From an uncultured Elusimicrobia bacterium (GTDB lineage Bacteria; Elusimicrobiota; Elusimicrobia; CAZMIB01), in NCBI GenBank assembly GCA_964566245.1, contig CAZMIB010000001.1, positions 4,777 to 68,776 of the forward strand: a stretch of DNA of 64,000 nt. Direction: 5' to 3'. The notes under the pieces were generated by a model. That model did not search any database and was not told where the DNA came from. It saw only the letters and a list, made by a program, of their open reading frames with translations. Every line of letters starts with the position of its first letter. The stretch's first letter is position 1. Made by a program: the position numbers and the translations under genes. This document shows, one piece after another, positions 3,554-41,990 of this stretch.

Positions 3554-3567
3554 CACAACTAAAGAGT

Positions 3568-3602
3568 GCCCTCTCCTAATGGGAGAGGGTGGGGGTGAGG
3601 GG
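3568..3602. repeat. GC-rich palindromic element copy (CCCTCTCC-TAAT-GGGAGAGGGTGGGGGTGAGGG), intergenic after the large repeat-protein gene. A perfect 14-bp palindrome GGGTCCTAGGACCC lies at 3656-3669.
   Basis: Sequence read directly; it shares the GGGAGAGGGTGGGGGTGAGGG arm with the other copies. Confidence 0.7.
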
Positions 3603-3727
3603 CAGGTCTAGGTCTCCCTGCCTAATGACCCAGGTCACCTTTCCCGTCGATGACATGGGTCCTAGGACCCCTGACCCTCCGGGAGCCTTCCTTTAATATA
3701 TGGGGGACCGGCAAGCGCCGGCTCTCC

Positions 3728-5380
3728 ATGACCGTCTTCCGTCTGTTCCTTTGCGCTGTTCTCGCTCTTCAGCCCTTCCGCGCCGCGTTGGGCGCGACCA
3801 AGGCCGATAAGCCCGGCTTCTCGCCCATCCTTCCCGTCGGGCTGAACCAGGCCGCGCCGGCCCTGCCTCAACTCCAAGCTCCGCTTGTCGCTCCCTCGGC
3901 CGCGCCGGCTCCAGCGCCGAGTCTCGCCCCGGTCTCGGGCACCTCCGGGGTCAACGCCAAGGAGGCGATCGCCTTTCTCAAAGGGCGGAAAAAAATAAGG
4001 GCGGTGTTCGTCGACGCGGCCGGCTACGGACACCAGACGGCGACGCTGTCCTTGATACGGCGTTTGCGCGAGTTGGGCTACGAAGGGAAACTAGAGGCCG
4101 TCTTTGAGAACGACATCTTGGACGAGGACCGCGGATTGTCCAAGAAGCTGGGCCAGCTTCTTCCGGAGTTCGACCCGTTCGGGCCCGCCGTCCAGCATCT
4201 GCCGGGCCTCGGCCTGACGATGCGGGATCTCGGGCCCCGCGACCGCGGCCAAGGGCCCGTCCGCCTGGAGCCCGTCGCGCTGGCGTTCACGGGCGGCGCC
4301 GACCCCAAGCGTTCCTACGCGCGAAAATACAACGCCGACGTCTTCCTGCGCCTGGGTCCGATGGGCTGGCTGGAGCAAAACTATTGGGAGGTCTATCCGG
4401 ACCAGCTCTATCGTCGCGACCAGGAGGCCGGGATTCCGATCCGGTCGAGACGAGACGCTCCGTTGATCTACCGGCCTTTGGCCGAGGAGATGGACGATGC
4501 TTGGTTCTCGCGGATAGCCCCCGCGAACCTCGAGCCTGAAAAGGCGGCGGGCCTGAAGACCTTGGCGCGCCGCATTGAAGAGCATGACGTTCTCGCCGCC
4601 TACGGGCTTCAGTATTTCAACGAGGACAGATTGACCTTGCTTCTCGTTTCCATCTCGCACGCCATGGAGACTCGTCCCGAGCTGTTCAAGGGCCGCGGCG
4701 TGGTCGTGCCGCTGTTGTCGGAGTTCCAAGGCGCTATCGCCGGCGTTCAATCCCGGCTCGATCACCCAAGGCGGGACAACGGCTGGATAGCGGCGCCGCG
4801 CCGGGGCGCGGCGATCTCGAGCAAGCGAAAGGCGGCTCGGCGCGTGAGCTTCGCCGACGTGCGCGATCCGGACCTGGACGTGACGCTGCGCCGCGTGGGT
4901 CCGGGGGATATCGTCGTCGTCGAGACGGGCGCCGTCCCGCCGGCGCTGTTCGAGCGACTGTTTTCCGCGAGCACCTTGCCGCCGACCCTGGAGGGCTGCA
5001 ACGCGACCAACCTGGCCCGTCTGCTGGGCCTGCCTTTCCTGCCGGTCACCATGTGGCAGCTCGACCGGCTCGTCGATCGGTTCGCCGCCTCCGAGGCCAA
5101 GCGACGGGAGGTGAGCCGGTTGGTTTATTCCCGCCGCGCCGGCATGCACGACTCGATCGCTTACGCGCTGCTGGGCGGCGAGGGCGAGTTCGCCTTCGAG
5201 CGCATCGCGGCGTACATCGCGGCCGCGATGACGCCCGGCTCGTCGCTCCGGCGCATGTTCGAGGACGCGAAACTGCGACAGGATGATTATATTCGCGACA
5301 AGCTGGTTTTCGCCGCGCGGCGAGCCCTGGCCATGTCGCGCCGAGACGCCGCGGGCGCGTCGGGGAAGCCTTCGCCATGA
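3728..5380 (+). CDS. Secreted protein, paralog 1 of 3 (unknown family). It has a signal peptide, a Pro/Ala-rich linker and a conserved ~450-aa domain. Motifs: KKIRAVFVDAAGYGHQTATLSLIRRLRELG, TGGADP, and ETGAVPPALFERLFSASTLPPTLEGCNATNLARLLGLPFLP.
   Basis: ORF 3650..5380 re-started at ATG 3728 (MTVFRLFLCAVLALQPFRAALGATKADKP) by alignment with the paralog 2 and 3 N-termini. Stop overlaps the next start (ATGA). Confidence 0.6.
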   Translation: MTVFRLFLCAVLALQPFRAALGATKADKPGFSPILPVGLNQAAPALPQLQAPLVAPSAAPAPAPSLAPVSGTSGVNAKEAIAFLKGRKKIRAVFVDAAGYGHQTATLSLIRRLRELGYEGKLEAVFENDILDEDRGLSKKLGQLLPEFDPFGPAVQHLPGLGLTMRDLGPRDRGQGPVRLEPVALAFTGGADPKRSYARKYNADVFLRLGPMGWLEQNYWEVYPDQLYRRDQEAGIPIRSRRDAPLIYRPLAEEMDDAWFSRIAPANLEPEKAAGLKTLARRIEEHDVLAAYGLQYFNEDRLTLLLVSISHAMETRPELFKGRGVVVPLLSEFQGAIAGVQSRLDHPRRDNGWIAAPRRGAAISSKRKAARRVSFADVRDPDLDVTLRRVGPGDIVVVETGAVPPALFERLFSASTLPPTLEGCNATNLARLLGLPFLPVTMWQLDRLVDRFAASEAKRREVSRLVYSRRAGMHDSIAYALLGGEGEFAFERIAAYIAAAMTPGSSLRRMFEDAKLRQDDYIRDKLVFAARRALAMSRRDAAGASGKPSP

Positions 5381-7200
5381 CGCGCTCCCGGCTGGCCGCT
5401 TGCTTTCTCCTCGTCGGCGCTCGCCTCGCCGCCTTCGGCGCGACGAAGGCGGACAAGCCCGTCCTTCCGTTCCTCGCGCCGACGGCTCTCAACGAAACAG
5501 TTCCGGCGATCCCCGCAATCGCGCGGCCCTTGGTGGAAGGGGCAGGTCTTGAACAGCCGGTTCTTGTCCCCGTAGCCCCGCGGCCCGAGCCCTCACCCCA
5601 CCCTCTCCCGCTACCGGGAGAGGGTGCTGAGGCGGTCGCGAAGTTTCCCCGGCGCCTGGCCGGGCTCTCCGAGGTGCTCGACGCGAATCGGCCCGCCGAA
5701 CGGCAGGCCGCGGCGCTCGACGCGGCGTTCTCCGGCGCGGCGGGAAAAGAGGAGGGGGAGCGGGGCGTCTCGGGCCTCGCCCTTGCGGAAGGAAAGGTTC
5801 CGCCCGAGGAGGCGATCGCCTACCTTAAAAGCCTCAAGAAGATCCGGGTCGCTTTCGTCAACGCTCCGGGCTTCGGCCATCAGATGGCGACGGTCTCGTT
5901 GATCCGCCGACTCAGGGAGCTGGGCTGCGAGGGCGAGATCGAGGCGGTTTATAAGGATCTGGATTTGCTGGGGAAAGCGAACCGGGTGCTGCGCGACAAG
6001 CTGGGCCAGCTTTTACCGGAGTTCAACCCCATCGGGCACAAAGTCCAACTCCTGCGGAGCGTGGGCGTGACGATGCGCAACATCACGCACGAGGAAGACT
6101 CCTTGCCCCGCGTCTCCTTCGGCCTCACCGGCGGCGCCGACGGCAACGAGCGTTTCGCGGACAAGTACAACGTCGATACCTTCCTGCGCCTGGGGCCCAT
6201 GGACTGGCACCGCCATTACCGGGACCAAGTCTACTTCAGGGCGCTCGGCGCCGGCATCCCGGTAGACGTCCGCGACGACGCGGCGCTCCTCTATCGTCCG
6301 GGATCGGAGGCGATCAACGATGATTGGTTCGGCCGTCTCAAGCGGGCGAACGTCGATCCGTCGAAGGCGGCCGGCCTGCGGACCTTGGTCCGCGGGCTCG
6401 GGGAGCACGACGTCCTCGCGTCCTACGGGCTGGCGAAGTTCAGGCCGAGCTCTCTGGCGGTGGCGCTCGCCTCCGTCGCCCGCGCGATGGACGAGCGGCC
6501 CGAGCTGTTTCGGAAACGAGGCGTCGTCGTGCCGCTTCTCCTGGATGTCGACTCGACGGTCACGGGAGTGGAAGCGATCGTCGCCGCGCCGGAGAAACAT
6601 AACGCGGACGTCGCTCCGACGCGCCTGCCGGCGGTGATCGCGGCGAAGCGCCGGCTGGGCGAACGGCTCAAGATCGCGTCGATCGGTGAGCCCGGGCTGA
6701 AGCACAGGCTGGGACGGTTGGGATCCGGGGACATTTTGGTCGTGAAGACGGGCGGCGCCCCGCCCGCGTTGTTCGAGCATTTTTTCAAGCGAAGCACGTT
6801 GCCGCCGACCGTGGAGGGCAAGAACGCTCAAAACCTTTGCCGCCTCCTGGGTATCCCTTTCCTGCCGCTGGACATGCTGCAGCTCAACGCGCTGATGCAA
6901 GAGCTTCCGGAACTGGGCGCGGACCGCCAGGCGGTCCAAGGCTTGCTCTATTTTCCAGGAGAGGACGGTCCGATGTCGCTGGCGTTGGCGTTGCGCTACG
7001 CGCAAACGGAGTTCGCCGTCGAGCCGATCGCGGCGTATATCGCCGCCGCCCTGACTCCCGGCTCGCCGCTGCGCCGGATGTTCGCCGACGCGCGGCTCGG
7101 GCAGGACGACTACGCCCGCGACAAGCTCGTCTCCGCGGTCCAACGCGTCCTCTTCCTTCAAAAAAGCGACTTGTCCTTGGCCCGCGCGCCGCGACCATGA
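5377..7200 (+). CDS. Secreted protein, paralog 2 of 3. Motifs: KKIRVAFVNAPGFGHQMATVSLIRRLRELG and KTGGAPPALFEHFFKRSTLPPTVEGKNAQNLCRLLGIPFLP.
   Basis: Aligns clearly with paralogs 1 and 3. Signal peptide MTRSRLAACFLLVGARLAAFGATKADKP. The N-terminal linker contains a palindromic-element copy (5589-5629). Confidence 0.65.
   Translation: MTRSRLAACFLLVGARLAAFGATKADKPVLPFLAPTALNETVPAIPAIARPLVEGAGLEQPVLVPVAPRPEPSPHPLPLPGEGAEAVAKFPRRLAGLSEVLDANRPAERQAAALDAAFSGAAGKEEGERGVSGLALAEGKVPPEEAIAYLKSLKKIRVAFVNAPGFGHQMATVSLIRRLRELGCEGEIEAVYKDLDLLGKANRVLRDKLGQLLPEFNPIGHKVQLLRSVGVTMRNITHEEDSLPRVSFGLTGGADGNERFADKYNVDTFLRLGPMDWHRHYRDQVYFRALGAGIPVDVRDDAALLYRPGSEAINDDWFGRLKRANVDPSKAAGLRTLVRGLGEHDVLASYGLAKFRPSSLAVALASVARAMDERPELFRKRGVVVPLLLDVDSTVTGVEAIVAAPEKHNADVAPTRLPAVIAAKRRLGERLKIASIGEPGLKHRLGRLGSGDILVVKTGGAPPALFEHFFKRSTLPPTVEGKNAQNLCRLLGIPFLPLDMLQLNALMQELPELGADRQAVQGLLYFPGEDGPMSLALALRYAQTEFAVEPIAAYIAAALTPGSPLRRMFADARLGQDDYARDKLVSAVQRVLFLQKSDLSLARAPRP
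5589..5629. repeat. GC-rich palindromic element copy (GCCCTCACCCCACCCTCTCCCG-CTACC-GGGAGAGGGTG) inserted in frame in the paralog 2 linker, where it encodes EPSPHPLPLPGEGAEA
   Basis: Direct read of the sequence and its translation. Confidence 0.75.
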
Positions 7201-9185
7201 CCGCCTCCCGCCGTCTCGCGCTTCTCCTCTCGCTCGGCCTCGCGGCCGGAGCAAGAGCCGCGACGGAGAAGGAATCCCCTCCGGCCGTCGTTGTCGTTCC
7301 CTCGCCCCCGATGGGGGGAGAGGGTGGGGTGAGGGGGTTGGCGGCTCCCATGCCCTCACCCCTTCCCTCTCCCGCAAGCGGGCGAGGGAGTTCCTTGGGA
7401 AACATCTCCCAGCCTGCCGCGCATTTTCATCCTTTGCCTCCTGCGGTCGTGTCCGCGGTTCGCGTTATCACCGCCGCGAAGGCGGCTGTCGGCAATGCCG
7501 TCTCTCCGGCGGCGAAAGCCGCGGCGCTGGATCGCCTCTACTCCGGCGCGGCCGAGAGAGACGGCGTCGAAATTCTCGAGACCTCCGATGCCGCGGGGCC
7601 GGGTTTCGCGAGCCTCGCGGCGCGTCGATCCGAGCCTCCGGCGCGCGCGCCCGCGGCCTTCGATCCGGCGCCGGATATCGCCTTCCTCAAGCGCCTCAAG
7701 AAGATACGCGTCGTGTTCACTCATGCCCCGGGCCTCGGCCACCAGACGGCGACGTTGTCGATCGTCCGCCGGCTCAGGGATTTGGGCGTCAAGGCGCCGA
7801 TCGAGGCGATCTATCATGCCGTCAAAGGGGACCCGCAAGACCTCAGGCTCAAGCTGGCCCAGCTCATGCCCGAGTTCGATCCTCACGGCCCGGATGATCA
7901 GCGCGTGCCGTCGCTGAACATGACTTTGCGAAGCTGGGACAGCTTCAGGCGCGACAGGGACGACGTGGTGCTGGGGCTGACCGGAGGCGCGGACAAGTCC
8001 ATCGGCAATTTCGCCCGCCAATACCGGACAGAGATTTTCGCGAGGCTGAAACCTTACGGCTGGGGGGACTACGAGGACGAGCTTCACGTCCTCGAGAGCG
8101 GCAAGGTGAGCTTGCTGTCCTACATCGACGCGTCCTCGGGCCACGGGGCCTTTGTCTATCGGCCCGCCCAGGATCAGGTCGGCGCGGCGTATGTCGATGC
8201 TTTAAACCCGAATAATGTTCCGGCGGCGAAGGCCGCCGGCCTGAAGGTCCTGTTGCGCGAGCTGCCGAAGCGCGACTCCTTGGCCGCCTACGGCCTCCAC
8301 TTCTTCACGCCGCGCGCGCTTCACCGCCTGCTGCTCGGAGTGTCTCGCGCGTTGGACGATCGGCCCGGCTTGTTCAAGGGCCGGGGCGTGGTCGTGCCGC
8401 TGCTTCTCGATATCGACGACACGGTCGACGACATGCAGGATCAAATCAAAATCCCGCGCTTGATCTTGAACTCCGTCACCGATCCGCGGTGGCGCGCCGT
8501 CCTTGTCGCCAACGGCAAGCTGCGCCGCCGGCTGAAGATCGCCGACATACGCGACCCGGCCCTGTCGGAAAAGATCGAGGGAATGAAGCCCGACGACATC
8601 CTTGTCGTGAAGACGGGTGCCGTTCCGCCGCCGCTCTTCGAATGGTTCTTTTCGCGTAGCACCTTGCCGCCGACCTTGGAGGGCAAGAACGCGACCAACC
8701 TCGCGCATCTGCTGGGCATCCCCTTCCTCCCTATCAAGGAGGACGTCCTGGCGGGGCTCATCGATCGCGTTCCCGAGGGCGGGCCCAGGGAGGCGGTCGC
8801 CGCGCTGCTCCACGTCCGGACCGGCGTCATCGGCATGTCCATCTCCGCCGTGCTGCACCATGACGATTTCAGCTTCGCCTTCGAGAAGCTCGCCGACTAC
8901 ATGATCGCGGCGATGACGCCCGGCTCGCCGCTGCGGGAGATGTTCCGGAGCGCGCGCATCGCCCAGGACGATTACGCGCGCGACAAGCTGCTGCAGGCGG
9001 TCCGACAGGCGAGGCCGCGGATGGGCGCCCCGCCGAGTCCATGGCGCCGGTTCCTCGACGCCTGCCTCCGGTGGCTTCCCGGCCGCTCCAAGGAAAAGCC
9101 CGCGCCGCCGCCGGCTTCCCAGGGCCGGCAAGGGCCCACGGGACGCGAGCGGGTGAGCTTTTTCGGCCCCAAGGACCCTCTTTAA
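7197..9185 (+). CDS. Secreted protein, paralog 3 of 3. Motifs: KKIRVVFTHAPGLGHQTATLSIVRRLRDLG and KTGAVPPPLFEWFFSRSTLPPTLEGKNATNLAHLLGIPFLP.
   Basis: ORF 6837..9185 re-started at ATG 7197 (MTASRRLALLLSLGLAAGARAA) by paralog alignment. Start overlaps the paralog 2 stop. The linker carries two palindromic-element copies. Confidence 0.6.
   Translation: MTASRRLALLLSLGLAAGARAATEKESPPAVVVVPSPPMGGEGGVRGLAAPMPSPLPSPASGRGSSLGNISQPAAHFHPLPPAVVSAVRVITAAKAAVGNAVSPAAKAAALDRLYSGAAERDGVEILETSDAAGPGFASLAARRSEPPARAPAAFDPAPDIAFLKRLKKIRVVFTHAPGLGHQTATLSIVRRLRDLGVKAPIEAIYHAVKGDPQDLRLKLAQLMPEFDPHGPDDQRVPSLNMTLRSWDSFRRDRDDVVLGLTGGADKSIGNFARQYRTEIFARLKPYGWGDYEDELHVLESGKVSLLSYIDASSGHGAFVYRPAQDQVGAAYVDALNPNNVPAAKAAGLKVLLRELPKRDSLAAYGLHFFTPRALHRLLLGVSRALDDRPGLFKGRGVVVPLLLDIDDTVDDMQDQIKIPRLILNSVTDPRWRAVLVANGKLRRRLKIADIRDPALSEKIEGMKPDDILVVKTGAVPPPLFEWFFSRSTLPPTLEGKNATNLAHLLGIPFLPIKEDVLAGLIDRVPEGGPREAVAALLHVRTGVIGMSISAVLHHDDFSFAFEKLADYMIAAMTPGSPLREMFRSARIAQDDYARDKLLQAVRQARPRMGAPPSPWRRFLDACLRWLPGRSKEKPAPPPASQGRQGPTGRERVSFFGPKDPL
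7298..7338. repeat. GC-rich palindromic element copy (CCCTCGCCCCCG-ATGG-GGGGAGAGGGTGGGGTGAGGGGG) in frame in the paralog 3 linker
   Basis: Direct read. Confidence 0.7.
7352..7391. repeat. GC-rich palindromic element copy (GCCCTCACCCCTTCCCTCTCCCGCAAGCGGGCGAGGGAG, followed by TTCCTTGGGAA) in frame in the paralog 3 linker, where it encodes [15 protein letters not shown]
   Basis: Direct read. Same left arm and GCAAGC loop as the copies at 15673 and 33975. Confidence 0.75.
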
Positions 9186-10756: not shown

Positions 10757-11650
10757 TCACCGTGCCCTCTCCCCAAGGGAGAGGGGGAGGGCGAGGGGTT
10801 CTGATTTCATCCATCCTAATCCGACCACCGACCCCACCACCAGCGCCATCCCCACCCACGTCGCCGCGTTGGGTCGTTCATTCCAAAACATCCATCCGCC
10901 GGCCGCGGTCATCACGACCGAGAGCATCATCGCCGCCCCGCTTTTCGAGACCGGGCAAAGCTCGAAGCCGCGCGTCATCAGCCCTTGTCCCGCGGTCGCG
11001 CTCGTGGAGACGGCGAGCAGGACGGCCCAGCCGATCACGTCGGGCCGGCTCCATTGAACAACGGCGAAGGGCGCGGTCGCGGCCGCCCCGACGAGGTTGA
11101 AGTAGAACACGATCCTCCACGCGGGCTCGTCCTTCGTCAGGGCCCTGACCGTGGCGTACGAGACGCCGCCGATCACTCCGGCGCCGAGGCCGATCGCGTA
11201 GCCGACCCAGTCGCTGCCGCCCTGGGGGTGGACGACCAGGGCGACTCCGGTCAGGGCCGAGGCCAGCAGCCCCCCCGACGCGGGCGTGAGGCTCTCGCCG
11301 AGCGCGACGACGGCGATCACGGCCGCGAACAGCGGCGCGGTGTAGTTGAGCAGCACCGCGGTCCCGAGCGGGATGTGCGCGAGGGCCCAGAAGTAGCAGG
11401 CCATGCTCCCGATGCCCCACAGCCCCCGCGAGACGAGCAGCGGCCACCGCCGGCTGGCCGCGGAAAGGCCCTGCCGGCGCATGATCCGCAGCACCACCGG
11501 GAGCGCGAGCGCGTTGCGGAACAGGCATATCTCCGCGGTGCCGATAGAGCCCTTCAGGGCCTTGATCAGCATGCTCATGACCGCGAAGCACACGGCCGAC
11601 GCGGCGACGAGGCCGATGCCCCGCAGCTCGCTTTCCCGGGAGGGACGCAT
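10757..11650 (-). CDS. EamA/DMT-family transporter. Its C-terminal tail (...SEPLALPLSLGERAR) is encoded by a palindromic-element copy.
   Basis: Duplicated EamA-like TM pattern (NYTAPLFAAVIAVVALGE...). Stop at 10757. Confidence 0.7.
   Translation of the reverse strand: MRPSRESELRGIGLVAASAVCFAVMSMLIKALKGSIGTAEICLFRNALALPVVLRIMRRQGLSAASRRWPLLVSRGLWGIGSMACYFWALAHIPLGTAVLLNYTAPLFAAVIAVVALGESLTPASGGLLASALTGVALVVHPQGGSDWVGYAIGLGAGVIGGVSYATVRALTKDEPAWRIVFYFNLVGAAATAPFAVVQWSRPDVIGWAVLLAVSTSATAGQGLMTRGFELCPVSKSGAAMMLSVVMTAAGGWMFWNERPNAATWVGMALVVGSVVGLGWMKSEPLALPLSLGERAR
10764..10798. repeat. GC-rich palindromic element copy (GCCCTCTCCCCAAGGGAGAGGGGGAGGGCGAGGGG) overlapping the 3' coding end of the EamA gene
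   Basis: Direct read. Confidence 0.7.
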
Positions 11651-13031: not shown

Positions 13032-14558
13032 ATGATAATCATCCTCGACTTCGGATCGCAGTACACCCAGCTCATCGCTCGCCGCCTGCGCGAGCTCGAG
13101 ATTTTCTGCGAGATACTGCCGTACTCCACCCCTCTCGCCGAGCTGGTCGAACGCAACCCCAAAGGACTCATTTTCTCCGGCGGCCCCGCCTCCGTCTATC
13201 GCGGCTCCTCGCCCAAGCTTTCCGACGGCGTCATGGGCCTGGGCATCCCGATGCTCGGCATCTGCTACGGCATGCAGCTTCTGGCCCAGATGCACGGCGG
13301 CAAGGTCGAGGCGGCCAAGCGGCGCGAGTACGGCCACGCGACGCTGGACATCGTCGAGGACTCCCCGCTCTTCAAGGACCTGCCGAGCTCGCTCGAGGTG
13401 TGGATGAGCCACGGCGACGGCGTGCAGGCCGTCTCGAACGGCGTGCGCGCGATCGCCGCGACGCCGACCGCGCCCCTGGCCGCGATCGCCTATCCTGAAA
13501 GGCGCTGGTGGGGCGTGCAGTTCCATCCCGAGGTCGCGCACACCCCTCTCGGCGCCAAGCTGCTCGAGAACTTCGCGCGCGACATCTGCGGCATCCGCGA
13601 GCGCTGGACGGCGGGCCGCTTCATCCACGACTCGGTCGAGGCCATAAGGAAGCAGGTCGGCGGCGGCAAGGTGCTGCTGGCCCTCTCGGGAGGCGTCGAC
13701 TCCTCGGTCGCCGCGGCGCTCGTTCATAAAGCGATCGGCCCGCGCCTGACCTGCGTGTTCGTCGACCACGGCCTGCAGCGCAAGGGCGAGGCCGAGCGCA
13801 TACGCCGGCTGTTCGTCCACGCGCTCGGCGTCAAGGTGCGCATGGTCGACGCCTCGAGGGCTTTCCTAGGGCGCCTGAAGGGCGTCGCCGATCCGGAGCG
13901 CAAGCGCAAGATCATCGGCCGCGAGTTCATCCGCGTCTTCGAGACCGAGGCCAAGAAGATCGGCGGCGCCGGCTTTCTCGCGCAGGGCACCCTTTACCCG
14001 GACGTGATCGAGAGCGTCAGCGTGCGCGGACCGTCGGCCACGATCAAGACGCACCACAACGTCGGCGGCCTGCCGAAGCGCATGAAGCTCAAGCTCGTCG
14101 AGCCGCTGCGCTTCCTGTTCAAGGACGAGGTCCGCAAGGTCGGCCTCGAGCTGGGCCTGCCGGAGGAGGCGGTGTACCGCCATCCGTTTCCCGGGCCCTC
14201 GCTCGCGATACGCATCATCGGGGCCGTCTCGCCGGAGCGGCTGCGCATCGTCCGCGAGGCGGACGCGATCGTCGAGGAGGAGCTTCGCGCCGCCGGGCTC
14301 TACGACCGGGTCTGGCAGGGCTTCGCGGTGCTGCTGCCGACCAAGACCGTCGGCGTGATGGGCGACGAGCGCACCTACGAGAACGTCGCCGCGGTGCGCG
14401 TCGTCGAGAGCCAGGACGGCATGACCGCCGACTGGGCGCGCCTGCCCGAGGGCGTTCTGCGCAAGATTTCGAGCCGCATCGTCAGCGAGGTCAAGGGCAT
14501 CAACCGGGTCGTCTACGACGTCACGTCGAAGCCGCCCGGCACGATAGAATGGGAGTGA
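13032..14558 (+). CDS. guaA: GMP synthase (glutamine-hydrolysing)
   Basis: [21 protein letters not shown]...GICYGMQ (GATase), SGGVDSSV (PP-loop), ...PGTIEWE C-terminus. Confidence 0.9.
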
Positions 14559-14563
14559 AACCG

Positions 14564-15451
14564 ATGATAGAGACACTTTCGGCGACGGAGCTTCCGGGCG
14601 TCACCAGGCTGCGCAGCGGCAAGGTGCGCGACGTCTTCGACCTCGGCGACAGGCTGCTGCTGGTCTCGACCGACCGCCTCTCGGCCTTCGACCACATCCT
14701 GCCGACGCCGATCCCGGACAAGGGGCGCGTGCTGAACGCGCTGTCGACCTTCTGGTTCAACTGGTCGCGCGAGCTGGCGCCCAATCATTTGATCACGACC
14801 GACGTCTCCAAGTACCCCATGCCGCTGCGCGAGCACCGCGCGACGCTGGAGGGGCGCTCGAGCCTCGTCCGCAAGGCCAAGCGCATCGACGTCGAGTGCG
14901 TCGTGCGCGGCTACCTCTCCGGCTCCGGCTGGAAGGACTACAAGGCGCACGGGATGATCTGCGGCCAGGCGCTTCCGGAGGGCTTGGTCGAGTCCCAGCG
15001 CCTGCCGATGCCGATCTTCACGCCGACGACGAAGGCCGATGAGGGCCACGACAAGCCGATCACGATGACCGAGGTCCAGTCGATGATCGGCCCGGAGCTC
15101 GCGCGGCGCGTGCAGGACATGAGCCTTTTGCTTTACTCCGCGGGGGCCGACTACGCCGAGAAGCGCGGCCTCATCCTCGCCGACACGAAGTTCGAGTTCG
15201 GCGTGCTGGACGGCGAGGTGATCGTGATCGACGAGATGCTCACGCCCGACTCGTCGCGCTTCTGGGACAAGGAGTCCTACGCGCCGGGCCGCTCGCAGAA
15301 CCAGTTCGACAAGCAGTACGTCCGCGACTATCTGGAGAAGATCGGCTGGAACAAGGAAGCCCCGGCCCCCGCGCTCCCGCCCGACGTCGTCGCCCAGACG
15401 ACCAAGCTTTACCGCGAGGCTTACCGGAGGCTGACCGGGCTGGAACTGTGA
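14564..15451 (+). CDS. purC: Phosphoribosylaminoimidazole-succinocarboxamide synthase (SAICAR synthetase)
   Basis: GKVRDVFDLGDRLLLVSTDRLSAFDHILPTPIPDKGRVLNALSTFWF is diagnostic. ATG 14564 follows GGGAG; the alternative start at 14549 overlaps guaA. Confidence 0.85.
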   Translation: MIETLSATELPGVTRLRSGKVRDVFDLGDRLLLVSTDRLSAFDHILPTPIPDKGRVLNALSTFWFNWSRELAPNHLITTDVSKYPMPLREHRATLEGRSSLVRKAKRIDVECVVRGYLSGSGWKDYKAHGMICGQALPEGLVESQRLPMPIFTPTTKADEGHDKPITMTEVQSMIGPELARRVQDMSLLLYSAGADYAEKRGLILADTKFEFGVLDGEVIVIDEMLTPDSSRFWDKESYAPGRSQNQFDKQYVRDYLEKIGWNKEAPAPALPPDVVAQTTKLYREAYRRLTGLEL

Positions 15452-16011
15452 ACCGAACGCCGGCGGCGCTGATCGAGGTCTCGACGCGAGAGGGCTTCAG
15501 CGACTCCGCCGCCTCCGGCGTTCTATCGCTGGCGAAAGAGCTGGGCGTCCCGGTCGAAAAAGCCGCGACCGTCGCGCTGTACCGGTTGGAAGGGGACCTG
15601 GATCGCGCGGCGCTGACGAAGCTGGCGTCCGAGCTGCTGACGGATCCGGTCACCGAAACATACGAAATTGTTCCCTCACCCCAACCTTCTCCCGCAAGCG
15701 GGCGAGGGAGCTCTTCAATAAGCAACTCTGTTCCATTAGAAAGGAACTCCCTCGCACCGCGTGAGCGGGGAGAGGGCCGGGGTGAGGGGCAGTCGTTGCC
15801 GTGCCTCACCCTCGACATCTGGCTCAAACCCCAAGTCGCCGACCCGGTCGCGCCATCCATTGAACGCGGCGCGAAGGACCTGGGCTTTTCCTTGAAGGCC
15901 CGCATCGGCCGCCGCTATCGCCTGTTCGGGCCGTTGAACGCCGAGGCCGCCAAGACCGTCGCCTGGAAGGCGCTGGCCAATCCCGTCGTCCACGAGTGCG
16001 AGGTCCGATGA
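15448..16011 (+). CDS. purS: PurS-like FGAM synthase subunit. It is unusually long (187 aa) and contains two PurS-like halves separated by a 117-bp palindromic-element insertion.
   Basis: The second half, CLTLDIWLKPQVADPVAPSIERGAKDLGFSLKARIGRRYRLF...ANPVVHECEV, is canonical PurS. The first half, ...LTDPVTETYEIV, is PurS-like. Position is between purC and purL. Confidence 0.65.
   Translation: MNRTPAALIEVSTREGFSDSAASGVLSLAKELGVPVEKAATVALYRLEGDLDRAALTKLASELLTDPVTETYEIVPSPQPSPASGRGSSSISNSVPLERNSLAPRERGEGRGEGQSLPCLTLDIWLKPQVADPVAPSIERGAKDLGFSLKARIGRRYRLFGPLNAEAAKTVAWKALANPVVHECEVR
15673..15789. repeat. Long (117 bp) version of the GC-rich palindromic element, with terminal inverted repeats CCCTCACCCC...GGGGTGAGGGG. 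Inserted in frame in purS, where it encodes [14 protein letters not shown]...RERGEGRGEG.
   Basis: Direct read: the left end CCCTCACCCCAACCTTCTCCCGCAAGCGGGCGAGGGAG and the right end GCGGGGAGAGGGCCGGGGTGAGGGG are inverted relative to each other. Confidence 0.75.
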
Positions 16012-18383
16012 GCTTCCTGCGCGCGTCCCTCGCCGAGCTTGAGACCCTCAGCCGTGAGCGGCAATGGTCGCTGGATCGGATCGAGCTGAAGGCGATCCAA
16101 GACCATTTCAAGAAGCTCAAGCGCGAGCCGACCGACGTCGAGCTGGAGACGTTGGCCCAGACCTGGTCCGAGCACTGCAAGCATAAGACGCTCACCAGCC
16201 CGCTCCTATATAAGGAAGGGGGCAAGGCCCGCCGCTTCAAGAACCTGCTCAAGGAGACGATTTTCGACGCGACCCGGCGGCTCAAGAAGCCATGGTGCCT
16301 GTCGGTGTTCAAGGATAACGCCGGCATCGTCGCCTTGGACAAGGACTGGGCCTTGGCCTTCAAGGTCGAGACCCACAACCACCCCTCGGCGATCGAGCCC
16401 TACGGCGGCGCGGCCACCGGCGCGGGCGGCGTGATACGCGACGTGCTCGGGGCCGGCCTCGGCGCCAAACCGGTGATGAACACCGACGTGTTCTGCGTCG
16501 GCCCGCTGGATCACGAGGGCGACCTGCCCGAGGGCTTCTTCCCGCCGCGCCGCACCTTGCGCCAGATCACGGCCGGCGTGCGCGACTACGGCAACCGCAT
16601 GGGCATACCGACCGCCAACGGCGGCCTGGCCTTCGACCCCGGCTTTCTGACGAACCCGCTCGTCTTCTGCGGCACGGTCGGCGTGATCCCGCGCAAGGCC
16701 GTGAAGAAAAGCGTACGCCCGGGCGACCTCATCGTCGCGGTCGGCGGCCGCACCGGCAGGGACGGCCTTCACGGCGCCACTTTTTCTTCCGCCGCGCTGG
16801 ATGATGCCGCGAGCGTCAGCGCGGTGCAGATCGGCAACGCGATCGAGGAGAAGAAATTCCTCGACGTTCTGCTGCAGGCGCGCGACAAAGGCCTGTACCG
16901 CGGCGTCACCGACTGCGGGGCCGGCGGCTTCTCATCCGCGATCGGCGAGCTCGGCGCGGAAATCGGCGCCGAGGTGCGCCTCGAGACGGCCCCGCTGAAG
17001 CACGAGGGGCTGAAGGCGTGGGAAATTTGGCTGTCCGAGTCCCAGGAGCGCATGGTCCTGGCCGTGCCCCCGTCCCGCTGGCCGGCGCTGAAGTCCCTGT
17101 TCGACGCCGAGGACGTGGAGGCCGTCGCGCTCGGGACCTTCAAGAAGACGGGGCGGCTGCAGGTCTACTTCAAGGACGAGCTGGTCGCCGATTTGTCGAT
17201 GAAGTTCCTGCATGAGGGACTGCCGAGGTATGAGCGAAGGGCGGAGTGGAGCGGACGAAAGAACCCTCACCCGCCCTCCGGGCACCCTCTCCCACAAGTG
17301 GGAGAGGGTGGGGGTGAGGGGCATGATTCCTCCAATCTAGGCTCCGCCCTCAAGGCCCTCCTCTCCCATCCCAACATCTGCTCCCGCGAGTGGATCGTCC
17401 GCCAGTATGATCATGAAGTCCAAGGTCAGACGATCGGCAAGCCGTTTCAGGGGCCGGGGCAGGGGCCGGGGGACGCGGCGGTGATTTGGCCGGTGACGAC
17501 CACGGGCGCCAAGCGCATTCCCGCGTTCGCGGTCTCGAACGGGATCACGATCGGGGCCGCCGATCCGTATAAAGGCGCCGTCGCCGCGGTCGACGAGGCG
17601 CTGCGCAATCTCGCCGCGGCCGGGGCCGACGTCCGGCGCGCGGCCTTGCTCGACAATTTCTGCTGGGGCGATCCGAAGGACCCGCGCGAGCTGGGCGGCC
17701 TCGTCCGCGCGGCGCTCGGCTGCCGCGACGCGGCGCTCGGTTACGGCGCGCCGTTCATCTCGGGCAAGGACAGCCTCAACAATACCTACGCCGACGCCTC
17801 CGGCCGCCGTGCCTCGATCCCCGGGACCTTGCTGATCTCGGCGCTGGCCCCGCTGCCCGATCCGAAGCGCCGCATGACGATGGATTTGAAAGGCTCCGGT
17901 CACGCGGCGTTTCTCGTGGGCCCGGCGGCCGAGGGCTTCGTCTTTTCGCGAGAGGTTCTGGCCGCGCTGTTCAAGGCGATCCAAAGCGGCTTCGTCCTCG
18001 CCTGCCACGACCTTTCGGAGGGCGGGCTCGCGGTCGCCGCGGCCGAGATGGCCTTCGCGGGGAACGTCGGCCTGGAGCTGTCGCTGAACGGCTTCACCTC
18101 CTCGAGCGACGCCGAGGCGCTGTTCGGCGAGGGCCTTACGCGCTTCTTGATCGAGGCCGCCCCCGGGCGCGAGCGCAAGCTGGCGGCCTTGCTGCACGAC
18201 CATCTTTTCATCGAGGTCGGCCGGACGATCGCCGAGCCCGTCCTGCGCGCGCGGCATCAGAGCCGCGTCGTCCTTCAGGAGAACCTCGGCGAGCTGCGCG
18301 AGGCCTGGTCCACGGCCTTGGCCCGCGAGCTGGACGGCCGGCGCTCCCAAGCGCCGGCGCCGGCCCGGGAGGTGGCGGCATGA
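16008..18383 (+). CDS. purL: Phosphoribosylformylglycinamidine synthase subunit PurL (small PurL). It carries an in-frame 58-bp palindromic-element insertion.
   Basis: ...ETHNHPSAIEPYGGAATGAGGVIRDV...; ATGA overlap with the purS stop. Confidence 0.9.
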   Translation: MSFLRASLAELETLSRERQWSLDRIELKAIQDHFKKLKREPTDVELETLAQTWSEHCKHKTLTSPLLYKEGGKARRFKNLLKETIFDATRRLKKPWCLSVFKDNAGIVALDKDWALAFKVETHNHPSAIEPYGGAATGAGGVIRDVLGAGLGAKPVMNTDVFCVGPLDHEGDLPEGFFPPRRTLRQITAGVRDYGNRMGIPTANGGLAFDPGFLTNPLVFCGTVGVIPRKAVKKSVRPGDLIVAVGGRTGRDGLHGATFSSAALDDAASVSAVQIGNAIEEKKFLDVLLQARDKGLYRGVTDCGAGGFSSAIGELGAEIGAEVRLETAPLKHEGLKAWEIWLSESQERMVLAVPPSRWPALKSLFDAEDVEAVALGTFKKTGRLQVYFKDELVADLSMKFLHEGLPRYERRAEWSGRKNPHPPSGHPLPQVGEGGGEGHDSSNLGSALKALLSHPNICSREWIVRQYDHEVQGQTIGKPFQGPGQGPGDAAVIWPVTTTGAKRIPAFAVSNGITIGAADPYKGAVAAVDEALRNLAAAGADVRRAALLDNFCWGDPKDPRELGGLVRAALGCRDAALGYGAPFISGKDSLNNTYADASGRRASIPGTLLISALAPLPDPKRRMTMDLKGSGHAAFLVGPAAEGFVFSREVLAALFKAIQSGFVLACHDLSEGGLAVAAAEMAFAGNVGLELSLNGFTSSSDAEALFGEGLTRFLIEAAPGRERKLAALLHDHLFIEVGRTIAEPVLRARHQSRVVLQENLGELREAWSTALARELDGRRSQAPAPAREVAA
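17264..17321. repeat. GC-rich palindromic element copy (CCCTCACCCGCCCTCCGGGCACCCTCTCCCACAAGTGGGAGAGGGTGGGGGTGAGGGG) inserted in frame in purL, where it encodes [21 protein letters not shown]
   Basis: Direct read. Confidence 0.8.
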
Positions 18384-19080
18384 AGCGCGTCCTCGTGCTG
18401 CGCGCCGCGGGCGTCAACTGCGACGCGGAGCTGGAGCTGGCCTTCCGCTGGTGCGGGGCCAAGGTGGAGCGCGTCCACGTCAACGCCCTTTTGTCCGGCG
18501 CGCGCCGGCTGCTCGATTTCGACGTGCTCGGCCTGCCGGGAGGCTTCTCGTACGGCGACGACATCGCCGCCGGCAAGGTGCTGGCGAACGAGGTCCGCAA
18601 GCTGCCCGGCCTCGCGGAGTTCGTCCGCTCGGGGCGGCCGGTGTTCGGCGTCTGCAACGGTTTCCAGGTGCTCGTGAAGGCCGGTCTTCTGCCGGGCGAC
18701 GGCGAGGGACGCCAGACCGCGAGCCTCGCCGCGAACGACTCCGGGCGCTTCGAGTGCCGCTGGGTGAAGCTGCGCGTGCGAGACGGGTCTTTCTTCACGC
18801 GCGGCCTGCCCGAGGAGATCGAGCTGCCGATCGCGCACGGCGAGGGAAAGTTCGTCGCGCCCGAGGGCGTGCTCGACAAGGTGCGCGTCGCGCTGAGTTA
18901 CGCGGAGAACCCCAACGGCTCGATGCGCGACATCGCCGGGATCGTCAACGCGGCCGGCAACGTTTTCGGGCTGATGCCCCACCCCGAGCGCTTCCTGACC
19001 CCGCTGCATCATCCGAGCCGGCGCGAGGTCGAGGCGCGCGAGCTGGGGCTCGCGATCGTCGAGAATATCGTGAGGCGCTG

Positions 19081-19081
<1 letters not shown>
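18380..19081 (+). CDS. purQ: Phosphoribosylformylglycinamidine synthase glutaminase subunit PurQ
   Basis: MKRVLVLRAAGVNCDAE...GVCNGFQVL...HGEGKF...MPHPER. Confidence 0.9.
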
Positions 19082-22278: not shown

Positions 22279-23217
22279 ATGAAGCACCTTCTCGGCATCG
22301 AGGACCTGTCGGCCGCGGACATCACCGCCTTGCTGGACGAGGCGGAGGGGTTCAAGCGCCGCTGGAGCTCGAGCCGGAAGGCGTCGGCGAATCTTAAGGG
22401 CAAGACGGTCGGCCTGCTGTTCTACGAGCCGTCGACGCGCACGCGCTCCTCGTTCGAGTTGGCCGCGAAGCGCCTCGGGGCCGAGGTGGTCAACCTCTCG
22501 CCGTCCTCCTCCAGCGTCGTTAAGGGAGAGAGCCTTTCGGACACCTTGCGCACCTTGGAGGCGATGGGCGTCGACGCCTTCGTGATACGTCACGCCGAGT
22601 CCGGGGCGGCGCGCGCCGCGGCGAAGGCCGTGAGCGCCTCGATCGTCAACGCCGGCGACGGCGCGCACGAGCACCCGACCCAGGCCTTGCTCGACTTCAT
22701 GACCTTGCGCGAGAAGAAGAAGCGCCTGGCCGGGCTGAAGGTCGTTTACGTCGGAGACATCCTGCACAGCCGGGTCGCGCGCTCCGGCGTCTTCGGCCTC
22801 ACCAAGCTCGGCGCGACGGTCGCCTTCTGCGGCCCGCCGACCTTGGTCCCCGAGGAGGCCCGCGCGTTGGGCGCCGAGGTGCATCACGATCTGAGGCGCG
22901 CCTTGAAGGACGCCGACGCCGTCGTCACGCTGCGGCTCCAGCTTGAGCGTCAGAAGGAAAATCTTTTCCCGAGCCTGGGCGAGTACGCGAAGCTTTACGG
23001 CCTGAGCAGCGAGAAGCTCCACTGGGCCAAACCCGGCTGCGTCGTCCTGCATCCTGGCCCCATGAACCGCGGCGTCGAGATCACCGACGAGCTTGCCGAC
23101 GGCGCGTCGTCCTTGGTGCTGGAGCAAGTCGCGAACGGCGTCTTCATAAGGATGGCCGTGCTGGCCCGACTCCTCTCTGGGAGTCGTTCAAAGACAAGAG
23201 GTTCGGTTCTGAAATGA
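22279..23217 (+). CDS. pyrB: Aspartate carbamoyltransferase catalytic subunit
   Basis: [15 protein letters not shown]...HPTQALLD motifs. Confidence 0.9.
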
Positions 23218-24068
23218 AGGGCATGACTCGGGTTCTCCCTCGCCCCGCGTGCGGGGAGAGGGTGGGGGTGAGGGGATCGAGGATCGCCGTCATACTTGCC
23301 GTTCTCTGCGCCGCCTCGGCCTACGCCTCCACCCCAACCGAAACTCACTTTCACGAGTCCGCCCTTCTATCCTCCGTGGTCCGTTACGCTCAAGCCCATC
23401 CCGCCGCCACGCCCGCCGACATCGCCCGCAAGGCCGACGAACTGTTGCCCCGCGAAGGCCTAAACTTTAAAGCCGCGCTCGACGATTGGAAGACCGACGT
23501 CGAAGCCACCTTGCACAAGGATGCCGCCCTCAAGCGGAAGCTGGGCAAATATCGTCTGGAACCGCTGTCGGCCCAAGCCAGCACGACCTCGTGCGGGACC
23601 GCTTATTACCTGCCGTTCACCAACAATCCCGCCGAGATCGCCGGCATAAGCCTGGCCGACCGGACCGCGTACCTGAAAACGCGCGGCGCCTTCCGCTTCG
23701 ACAGCGTCGCCTTGCTGGAGCGCGGCCGCGCGCGGCCGGTGCGTCGCTGGCCGCTGCCCGATGAGAGCGAGGTTCCCGCGGGGATATCGAAGGATGGCCG
23801 GACCCTCTTTCTGGAGTATAAGCTCGCCTCGGCCGAGACCGGTTGGACGCCGATCAAGGCCGGCGGCGAGGACCACATGCTCCTGGCGATCGGCCCGGAA
23901 AGTCTCATTTTCGCCGACAACTACGCCGAGCTGTCGAAGCAAAGTTGGGACACCCTCGAGGAACTACCCTGGAAGGTCCCGGCCCCCGAAGGCGACTACG
24001 AATCCTTCGGCGTGCTGAAGGCGTGGGGAAAAGAATTCTATTTCGGCTTCGAGCCTATATGTCGATAA
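23214..24068 (+). CDS. Hypothetical secreted protein. The 5' end overlaps a palindromic-element copy; the true start may be GTG 23268, which gives the signal peptide VRGSRIAVILAVLCAASAYAS.
   Basis: ORF track; signal-peptide-like N-terminus; no family recognised. Confidence 0.45.
   Translation: MKGMTRVLPRPACGERVGVRGSRIAVILAVLCAASAYASTPTETHFHESALLSSVVRYAQAHPAATPADIARKADELLPREGLNFKAALDDWKTDVEATLHKDAALKRKLGKYRLEPLSAQASTTSCGTAYYLPFTNNPAEIAGISLADRTAYLKTRGAFRFDSVALLERGRARPVRRWPLPDESEVPAGISKDGRTLFLEYKLASAETGWTPIKAGGEDHMLLAIGPESLIFADNYAELSKQSWDTLEELPWKVPAPEGDYESFGVLKAWGKEFYFGFEPICR
23230..23276. repeat. GC-rich palindromic element, deletion variant (GGTTCTCCCTCGCCCCGCGTGCGGGGAGAGGGTGGGGGTGAGGGG)
   Basis: Matches the internal hairpin plus right terminal repeat of the 173-bp copy at 31150. 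Confidence 0.7.
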
Positions 24069-29382: not shown

Positions 29383-31729
29383 GCTGGCCGTCCTCGCGTC
29401 CGGCGAGGGAACGAACTTCCAAGCGATCGTGGACGCCGCGCGCTCCGGCTGGCTGAGCGCGCAGGTGGCCGTGCTGATCTCAAGCCGCAAGGACGCGGGC
29501 GCGCTGCGCCGCGCGCGCGAGGCGGGCATCGAGACCACGGTCCTGGAGCCGACGGCCTTCCCCACGCCCGAGGCTTACGGCGAGGCTCTCGCGAAGGCCT
29601 GCCGTGACAAAGGTGTCGATCTGATCTGCCTCGCGGGCTATCTGCCCAAACTGCCCGACGCGGTGCTCAAGGCCTTCCCGGGAAAGGTGCTGAACATCCA
29701 TCCGGGGCTTTTGCCCGCCTTCGGCGGCAAGGGCATGTACGGGCGCAAGGTCCACGAGGCCGTGATCGCGGCGGGGGCCAAGGTCACCGGCTGCACGGTG
29801 CACATCGTCGACGAGGAATACGATCACGGGCCGATCGTGCTTCAAGCCACGGTCCCGGTCGCGGACGGCGACACGCCGGAGACGCTGGCCGCGCGCGTCC
29901 TCGAGGTCGAGCACCACCTTTATCCGAAAGCCGTGAAGCTGTTCTGCGAGGGGCGGGTTCACCTTGAAGGCCGGATGGTCCGCATAAAACCCGAGACAGC
30001 CAAGTCCGGCCAGGTGCGCCGCGCGCTGATCTCGGTCTCGGACAAGACCGGCGTCATCGAGCTGGCGCGCGAGCTGGCACGGCTGGGCGTCGAGCTGGTT
30101 TCGACCGGCGGCACCGCGAAGGCTCTCGCCGCGGCGGGACTGTACGTGCGCCCGCTCGGCACGATGACCCACTGGCCCGAGATGTTCGGGGGGCGCGTGA
30201 AAACCCTTCACCCCGCGGTGCACGGCGGCATCCTGTTTCGGCGCGACGATCCGGAGCACGCGCGTGAGGCGGCCCAGCACATGATCGAGCCGATCGATCT
30301 GGTGGTGGTGAACCTGTACCCGTTCGCGGAGGCCGCGAAGAAGCACCGCGCTTTCGAGCCCGAGCTGATCGAGGAGATCGACATCGGCGGGCCGACCCTC
30401 GTTCGCGGCACGGCGAAGAACTGCGACTCGGTGGCCATCGTCACGAGCCCGGCCGACTATGGGGCCGTCGTCGAGGAGCTGAAGTCGAAGGGCGAGCTGT
30501 CGCTGGAGACGCGAAGGAATCTGGCGAGGAAGGCGTTTCAGTCGACCGCCGCGTACGACGCCGAGATCGCGCGGGCCCTCTCCACGGCCGCCGATGGGGC
30601 GCGCTTCCCGGCCGCGTTGGACCTGCGCCTCGACAAGGTGCAGGACCTGCGCTACGGCGAGAACCCGCATCAAGCCGGCGCGCTCTACCGTGTCAGCGGA
30701 TCGGAACGGCCGTTCGAGCAGCTCCAGGGAAAGGAGCTCTCGTATAACAATCTGCTCGATGCCGAGGGGGCTTGGGGACTCGTCCAAGAGTTGGACGGCC
30801 CGGCCGCGGTGATCTTCAAGCACGTCACCCCCTGCGGCGCCGGCGCCGGACGGACCATCGTCGAGGCCTACCGCCGCGCCTGGGAGGCCGACGGCGTCTG
30901 CGCCTTCGGCGGCATCCTCGCGCTGAACCGCCCGCTCGATGCCGAGGTGGCGAAGGCGATCGGGGAGTTTTTCCTAGAGGTCATCGTCGCGCCGGAATTC
31001 ACCCCCGAGGCGCGCGAGTTGCTGCAACGAAAGAAGAACCTGCGCCTCCTGGAGCGTCGCCCCGGCGAGGCCGCTGCGCTGGAGTACCGCGTGGTGGGGA
31101 CGGAGGTGCTGGTTCAAGAACCGGATAAGGCCTTGTGGGCTGCGCAGAACCCCTCACCCCCACCCTCTCCCACAAGTGGGAGAGGGAGCTCCTTGGGAGT
31201 TCTCCGGCACCAGGTCTCCCTCGCCCCGCGTCAGCGGGGACGGGGGGAGCCCGGTGGGCTCCCCCACGAGCCTGGCCGTGGAGGGGGGCGGCTGGGAAAG
31301 GATGAGGGTGGGGGTGAGGGGGCGGATCTCTGGAAAGTCGTCACGCGCCGCGCGCCCACGCCGGAGGAATCCGAAGCCCTTCGCTTCGCCTGGCCGGTCT
31401 CGAAATACACCCGCTCCAACGCGATCGTGGTCGCGACGTCCGTTCAGACGCTCGGCATCGGCGCCGGGCAGATGTCGCGCGTCGACGCGGTGCAGGTCGC
31501 GGCGATGAAGCTCGCGCAGTACGCGCAGCGCAAGCCGATCCCGGCGACTCTCGCCGCGGCCTCGGATGCCTTCTTCCCGTTCCGCGACGGCATCGACGAA
31601 TTGGCTAAACTGAACGTGACGGCGATCGCCCAACCCGGCGGCTCGGTGCGCGACGAGGAAACGATCAAGGCCGCCGACGAGCGCGGCATGGCGATGGTAT
31701 TCACGGGGATGCGGCATTTCAGGCATTGA
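29375..31729 (+). CDS. purH: Fused PurN-PurH protein (784 aa): GAR formyltransferase (PurN-like, ~aa 1-200) joined to bifunctional AICAR formyltransferase/IMP cyclohydrolase. Carries an in-frame 173-bp palindromic-element insertion.
   Basis: The N-terminus [16 protein letters not shown]...[12 protein letters not shown]...[16 protein letters not shown] is PurN. ...[11 protein letters not shown]...LYPF... is the PurH MGS-like domain. There is no stop between them. The start is GTG 29375. Confidence 0.8.
31150..31322. repeat. Full-length (~173 bp) GC-rich palindromic/MITE-like element. Its terminal inverted repeats are CCCTCACCCCCACCCTC ... GAGGGTGGGGGTGAGGG, and it has internal hairpins (CCCTCTCCC-ACAAGT-GGGAGAGGG; GGGAGCCC-GGT-GGGCTCCC). 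Inserted in frame in purH, where it encodes about 58 extra residues.
   Basis: Direct read of both ends and the internal perfect hairpins. The translation [14 protein letters not shown]...GGGEGADLW interrupts an otherwise PurH-like sequence. Confidence 0.8.
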
Positions 31730-33974: not shown

Positions 33975-34027
33975 ACCCTCACCCCCACCCTCTCCCGCAA
34001 GCGGGAGAGGGCGAGGGGGAGGGGGAG
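33975..34027. repeat. GC-rich palindromic element copy (CACCCTCACCCCCACCCTCTCCCGCAAGCGGGAGAGGGCGAGGGGGAGGGGGAG), intergenic upstream of carB
   Basis: Direct read. Confidence 0.8.
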
Positions 34028-34038
34028 TCTGGGGAGAT

Positions 34039-37284
<3,246 letters not shown>

Positions 37285-41945: not shown

Positions 41946-41990
41946 AGAACTACTCAGTACGCTGAGTAAATTTACTCAGCGTACTGAGTA
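41946..41990. promoter_or_regulatory. AT-rich inverted-repeat pair (TACTCAGTACGCTGAGTAA ATT TACTCAGCGTACTGAGTAAAAAA) immediately upstream of the HxlR-family gene. Candidate operator, or a bidirectional terminator.
   Basis: Direct read: the two 19-mers are exact reverse complements of each other, and each is internally near-palindromic. Confidence 0.45.

Follow-up and report, generated by a model that had tools for sequence, protein, structure and literature searches.

The window, the whole stretch of 64 kb of DNA that was analysed, carries a purine biosynthesis operon in which the open reading frame (ORF) at 15448..16011 on the forward strand encodes a PurS protein of 187 amino acids (aa), made up of two PurS-like halves with a palindromic repeat element in between. 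The GTG start codon of this tandem (two-domain) purS gene overlaps the stop codon of purC (GTGA) and its TGA stop codon overlaps the ATG of purL (ATGA). With these 4-nt overlaps at both junctions the operon is intact, and purS is translationally coupled to its two neighbours. The two-domain assignment was based on the ORF list, the sequence, two stretches of similarity to the Pfam PurS family and homologue alignments.

Both halves of the protein were compared separately with the PurS profile of Pfam (PF02700, gathering score 22.2 bits). The N-terminal PurS-like domain (aa 1-75, 15448..15672, +) matched on its own with 24.0 bits (E 4.4e-5), barely passing the threshold, and residues 118-187 matched with 32.0 bits (E 1.4e-7), while the entire protein scored 49.6 bits in two stretches. 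These C-terminal residues lie within 15790..16008 (+, aa 115-187; PF02700 32.0 bits), which comprises a residual native linker (QSLPCLT) and a canonical PurS domain. With both halves above the gathering score, the claim of two PurS-like modules in one 187-aa ORF, made earlier in a first-pass annotation from the letters alone, is borne out. The same annotation had considered an upstream frameshift that joined purS to a separate small gene, a reading ruled out because the first half matches the PurS profile. Identity between the halves is 29% over 70 aa, indicating that the duplication is old. Of the two, the N-terminal half is the diverged one, and it is with the C-terminal half of the family profile that solved single-domain PurS chains align. 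The PurS equivalog models of NCBIfam gave scores under their cut-offs, both for the window protein and for its element-free relative described below.

An AlphaFold2 model was built from a 70-sequence alignment. The mean confidence (pLDDT) was 87, with values of about 97 in both domains (residues 7-76 and 119-186) and about 50 in residues 77-118, which are predicted to be disordered. Secondary structure assignment with DSSP gave the order strand-helix-strand-helix-strand for the N-terminal domain (E7-13, H20-31, E38-49, H53-64, E70-76), and the C-terminal domain was modelled as E119-126, H135-144, E149-160, H165-176 and E182-186. The PurS alpha/beta fold is predicted for both halves, in agreement with Foldseek, and in the model they are packed against each other as in a PurS dimer or in the N-terminal domain of large PurL. 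Since PurS is a homodimer and is structurally homologous to that N-terminal domain (PMC3815217; PMC3261824), the two-domain chain is predicted to form a PurS dimer within a single molecule, which agrees with one of the two options that the first-pass annotation had suggested. Assembly with small PurL and PurQ would then probably follow a 1:1:1 stoichiometry.

The element between the halves is a composite palindrome of 117 nt at 15673..15789, occupying codons 76-114 in frame. Its outer arms (15673-15693 and 15768-15788) are 21 nt long and 86% complementary, with inner arms at 15702-15713 and 15744-15755 nested between them. Folded as RNA, the element reached -77.1 kcal/mol compared with -47.5 ± 3.6 kcal/mol for dinucleotide shuffles (z -8.25), and none of 200 shuffles was as good. 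Together with the repeat motif treated below, the inverted arms and the fold confirm that the linker contains a 117-nt palindromic element, as had been proposed. The G+C content at third codon positions is 0.54 in the element versus 0.80 and 0.88 in the flanking domains. Its length equals exactly 39 codons, and the only frame of the forward strand without stop codons is the one in use. The element adds a low-complexity loop of 39 residues, rich in Pro, Ser, Gly and Arg and predicted to be disordered, so that most of the 44-aa linker consists of repeat-element DNA. A search of Rfam gave no family at the gathering score, only generic hairpin matches to miRNA models (13-26 bits against thresholds of 40-168), and the 45-aa element-encoded peptide had no match among 5.8 billion proteins.

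A gene with such an insert could be damaged or artefactual, either a pseudogene created by the repeat insertion or a misassembly of metagenomic reads at the repeat. Repeats are classic trouble spots in assembly, and the window probably derives from an uncultured lineage: among named loci, its PurC, PurL and PurQ are nearest to those of Elusimicrobiota metagenome-assembled genomes, at about 55% identity. However, the 39 codons are open in a single frame only, the one that is read, and on either side of the insert the gene continues in the order and register seen in the relatives. The overlaps with purC and purL are intact, all 30 residues that are invariant in a four-sequence alignment (A1) are kept, as they are by definition, and both domains are modelled at a pLDDT of about 97. 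Moreover, organisms with the small type of PurL depend on purS to make FGAM (PMC3261824), and no second purS was seen in the operon. Pseudogene formation and chimeric assembly were rejected in view of the stop-free insert, the intact junctions and the confidently modelled domains, and this explanation is considered highly improbable.

The two-domain form of PurS was found to be widespread. Three relatives of 153-170 aa were recovered in a first homologue search; they align over both halves and have short linkers without the element. Tandem relatives lacking it include P0006 (149 aa), P0002 (157 aa), P0003 (153 aa) and also P0004. When a profile of the three relatives was searched against 1.84 billion cluster representatives, 2250 matches were obtained, 829 clusters of which had E<=1e-10. 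Of the 150 best profile matches, nearly all cover the whole two-domain profile in one stretch, and most are about 145-175 aa long. Hundreds of clusters, from Planctomycetota, Elusimicrobiota, Chloroflexota and others, represent the same two-domain protein with an element-free linker of 7-16 aa. In a scan of species-representative genomes, 146 loci contained a relative, and nearly all of the 80 that were kept match both halves. These 146 loci are distributed over Phycisphaerae, Sedimentisphaerales, Pirellulales, Elusimicrobiota, Ratteibacteria, Anaerolineae and the cultured Thermogemmatispora aurantia. In a set of 254 tandem proteins the two domains are most often separated by 12 aa, and the 44 aa of the window protein form the longest linker.

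This distribution bears on the origin of the architecture. The first-pass annotation had offered the element itself as a cause of tandem duplication or fusion, which would mean that recombination or transposition at the element either doubled purS or joined two neighbouring purS genes. Repeats are able to mediate such rearrangements, and the element sits exactly between the two modules. Against this, a tandem PurS with a short, element-free linker is present in the closest relatives (P0006, P0002 and P0003) and in hundreds of clusters across phyla, which means that the fusion predates the element. Further arguments are the low identity between the halves, the single register of the family, in which N-terminal halves align with N-terminal halves and C-terminal with C-terminal halves, and the absence of the element family from related loci. 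Element-mediated duplication, largely refuted by the element-free tandem relatives, was rejected and is hardly credible. On the sequences compared, the tandem architecture is a trait of the family and not a product of the palindrome.

The closest relative, P0006, is encoded on a forest-soil contig (L082) with the gene order IMPDH-guaA-purC-purS-purL, as in the window, and with a PurC that is 74% identical. P0006 and the window PurS align from end to end with a single gap of 38 aa that coincides with the palindrome, and the DNA alignment concurs. In 629 kb of related loci, L082 included, the repeat motif does not occur. The parsimonious reading is that the element was gained in the lineage of the window. 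A tblastn search of plasmids found nothing, and one metagenome scan yielded no near relative, the best match being 39% identical. As a consequence, no presence/absence polymorphism among near strains can be shown and L082 remains the best empty site.

The neighbours of purS were assigned with Pfam and comprise an IMPDH-like gene, guaA, purC, a small purL and purQ. Upstream lies purC (SAICAR synthetase, 14549..15451, +; PF01259, 247 bits), the position of which is conserved in L082, L081, L093 and L094. Downstream follow purL (16008..18383, +), encoding the small FGAM synthetase subunit of 791 aa (PF18072, PF00586, PF02769), and purQ (18380..19081, +), encoding the glutaminase subunit (PF13507 GATase_5, 190 bits). 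The tandem PurS is thus encoded alongside a small PurL and a separate PurQ, both supported by Pfam, and this gene order is kept in relatives.

The element belongs to a repeat family dispersed over the window. Its arm motif CCCTCACCCCCACCCTCTCCC occurs eight times in the window at up to three mismatches, with none expected, and with shorter hairpin copies included the family occupies at least ten loci in 64 kb. The repeat is GC-rich and modular, being built from nested CCCTCTCCC/GGGAGAGGG hairpins, and its length varies from about 40 to 180 nt. Two short hairpin copies are intergenic, at 3560..3605 and at 33976..34023, the latter located upstream of a 1081-aa ORF (34039-37284). Within the purine genes, an in-frame copy is present in purL at 17266-17325 (motif match at 17300-17320). 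In an alignment to Thermus thermophilus PurL (3viu) it adds about 16-20 residues, in a region that is gapped and aligns poorly. A longer composite copy (31143..31325; motif matches, inverted repeat I7) lies in frame in the purH part of ORF 29375-31729, where it adds about 60 residues relative to the solved PurH 9ou7. This ORF of 784 aa holds purN (Formyl_trans_N) and purH (MGS and AICARFT/IMPCHase) without interruption and may be a purN-purH fusion.

Other copies were located outside the purine genes. The adjacent, paralogous genes 5377-7200 and ~7200-9185 for secreted proteins have N-termini resembling signal peptides, and each carries a copy in frame just after the signal peptide (5590-5627 and 7296-7400, respectively); the one paralogue scanned, 5377-7200, gave no Pfam match. 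A copy at 10765-10797, at the 3' end of an EamA transporter gene (10757-11650, -), appears to supply the last residues (PLALPLSLGERAR) and the stop codon, and one at 23230-23275, at the 5' end of ORF 23214-24068, appears to supply residues ahead of the hydrophobic core of a signal peptide. Read in the same frame, the element encodes the disordered peptide PSPxPSPxSGRGSS in PurS, in PurH and in the unrelated secreted product of the ~7200 gene, and the PurL copy is read in another frame. A separate feature of the window is a perfect 40-nt palindrome at 41951-41990 (TACTCAGTACGCTGAGTAAA/TTTACTCAGCGTACTGAGTA), which is intergenic and AT-rich for a window of 65% GC. Situated just upstream of a promoter-like pair (TTGACT-N17-TATACT), it may represent either an operator or a terminator.

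Several other tandem PurS proteins with linkers of 23-35 aa were found to carry repeat-like linker peptides, and the linker DNA was examined for six of these long-linker genes (L093-L098). In L094 (P0055) the linker forms a hairpin with z -9.4 that uses the same arm motif as the window element, CCCCTCACCCCCACCCTCTCCCC...GGGTGAGGGG, and L093 (P0016) contains a related double hairpin with z -4.7. These two genes (L094 679-1188 and L093 1153-1695) encode distant tandem PurS proteins, 33-35% identical to that of the window, yet their hairpins are built on the motif of the window repeat, CCCTCACCCC...CCCTCTCCC and GGGAGAGGG...GGTGAGGG, which indicates a motif family common to divergent lineages. 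The linkers of L095 (z -4.8), L097 (z -5.0) and L096 (z -2.9) contain hairpins of other sequence families. The 35-aa linker of L098 (P0082) consists of direct repeats and gave no hairpin signal (z 0.08), showing that not every long linker is palindromic. In L068 (3908-4633), a tandem purS from Elusimicrobiales, the linker measures 72 aa, the longest in any locus examined, and its insert is unlike that of the window, consisting of repeated TCACCAGTTTCC(A/G)GCGG units.

Each element-bearing protein is more similar to a shorter, element-free protein than to any other element-bearing one. With the nearest kin free of the element and insertion points that differ by a few residues, independent insertion events are indicated. 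The linker may be favoured as a target; the simpler view is that a small essential protein tolerates insertions at few places, of which the linker is one. Palindromic repeats would thereby have been captured in frame by the tandem PurS linker on several occasions and in distant phyla.

The insert might have acquired a function. A longer tether could alter docking of the pseudo-dimer, the hairpin in the mRNA could slow translation between the two domains or control the stability of the operon mRNA, or an internal start could be used. For the last of these, GAGGGG is followed after 6 nt by an in-frame TTG at 15796, from which the C-terminal PurS domain could also be made alone; this purine-rich stretch can be read in the sequence. 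The hairpin is very stable (-77 kcal/mol), hairpin repeats recur in the same linker of at least five other lineages, and three purine genes of the window carry copies of the family. Yet the inserts of the other lineages are of different sequence families and at slightly different positions, which fits a tolerance filter better, and the closest relative manages without the element. In addition, the encoded peptide is of low complexity and predicted to be disordered, its exact sequence is unmatched among the proteins searched, and copies are also found in intergenic DNA and unrelated genes. No positive evidence for a functional role was obtained, and these roles, the internal start being counted with the others, are unlikely. 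In the same vein, the loops encoded by the element might not be neutral and could serve as shared flexible tags that affect how purine enzymes assemble, or could tune the pur operon as hairpins in the mRNA, which is likewise a speculative proposal with a small chance of being right.

The most likely explanation, to which we assign a probability of roughly 0.85, is that of an old pseudo-dimeric PurS with a later, tolerated in-frame insertion of a repeat, an event of the kind known from Rickettsia palindromic elements (RPEs). An ancient internal duplication would have joined the two subunits of the PurS homodimer into one chain of about 150 aa, which would dock on small PurL and PurQ as a single pseudo-dimer, like the N-terminal domain of large PurL. 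Later, and only in the lineage of the window, a GC-rich palindromic repeat of 117 nt, from a family specific to this genome, would have inserted into the short inter-domain loop. The insertion would have fallen in the one stop-free reading frame, with the result that the element adds a disordered loop of 39 residues and disturbs neither domain. The event would thus be one of tolerated selfish DNA, most likely the same phenomenon as that of RPEs, and not the cause of the fusion. Of the suggestion that this is a pseudo-dimeric PurS whose linker came from a mobile element, the pseudo-dimer and the mostly repeat-derived linker stand, but a short native linker existed already and the element was added to it.

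Several points weigh against this explanation. Outside the gap, identity to the nearest relative without the element reaches only about 59%, so that the date and the direction of the event (gain here versus loss elsewhere) rest on parsimony. Subtracting the 39 aa leaves some 5-7 linker residues, which is near the lower limit for the family, so the element may have taken the place of a few native ones. Mobility of the repeat is deduced from its dispersed copies. The element possesses terminal inverted arms, but no flanking target-site duplication was evident and no evidence of a transposase or of mobility was encountered, no search having been aimed at a transposase. Neutrality of the loop is assumed, the structure is a prediction, and production of the full-length protein and its assembly with PurL and PurQ are presumed.

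For annotation, the consequence is that the 187-aa PurS is a normal member of a large tandem-PurS family and does not result from a frameshift or an artefactual fusion; curated models barely recognise this family because the NCBIfam scores fall under the cut-offs. For genome evolution, the locus offers a clear and datable case of in-frame insertion of selfish DNA into essential genes outside Rickettsia, and the independent insertions in the same linker of several lineages show how the architecture of a protein acts as a filter on the sites at which these elements persist. Enzymologists gain natural single-chain PurS dimers, both free-standing and fused to small PurL. They provide real sequences in place of the synthetic 'PurSS' sequence and alignment made by a group that studies the large-PurL N-terminal domain and its role in allostery (PMC3815217).

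The fused form was observed in six related loci (L032, L054, L058, L060, L066 and L079), in which the tandem PurS continues in frame into a small PurL within one ORF of about 980-1085 aa, the sequence ANPVIH leading directly into the linker motif of FGAR amidotransferase, ELETLAQTWSEHC. A representative match of 1273 aa (P0107) may likewise be a tandem PurS-PurL fusion. These fusions, similar to the archaeal 'mdPurL', suggest a graded series from PurS to large PurL. The natural tandem family offers a testable candidate for an evolutionary intermediate. The notion that free-standing PurS-PurS is a living intermediate between complexes of two PurS with small PurL and PurQ and the single-chain large PurL is tentative and, pooled with the non-neutral loops, of low probability. 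No description of a natural tandem or fused PurS was found in the literature searched, which is weak evidence of novelty as subscription journals lay outside its coverage. Both components are of a known kind, the homology between PurS and the large-PurL N-terminal domain and the existence of in-frame palindromic repeats being already established.

Among known systems, the closest counterpart is the FGAR amidotransferase composed of PurS, small PurL and PurQ (Thermotoga maritima 3D54, Bacillus subtilis 1TWJ). Both halves of the window protein belong to the Pfam family of its PurS and are predicted to have the same fold, and the purC-purS-purL-purQ neighbourhood, with a small PurL and a separate PurQ, is shared. 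Whereas canonical PurS is a homodimer of chains of about 80 aa, the window protein holds both subunits in one chain with diverged halves. In this it resembles the N-terminal domain of large PurL (Salmonella 1T3T/4LGY, human FGAM synthase 9N9W), a single-chain module similar to a PurS dimer, on which the window model superposes over 131-137 residues at 2.4-2.5 Å. The in-frame fusions of tandem PurS to small PurL in related loci resemble the PurS-PurL fusion of archaeal 'mdPurL' (PMC3261824).

The repeats share with REP/BIME sequences their short GC-rich hairpin units, occurring singly or in composite clusters, and some copies are intergenic. REPs are extragenic by definition, whereas most window copies overlap ORFs, including purS, purL and purH. 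A passage of PMC10969869, citing Ogata 2000 and 2002, describes RPEs as short dispersed palindromic repeats lying in frame in housekeeping genes that are unrelated to one another, at sites where the protein fold can accommodate them. Compared with the RPEs of that passage, the window organism is not Rickettsia and is probably free-living, and the element is GC-rich, modular and variable in length, with no target-site duplication seen. The copies in purS, purL and purH are nevertheless, like the RPEs described there (PMC10969869) and other intragenic MITE-like repeats, dispersed, palindromic and in frame, a resemblance that is functional only.

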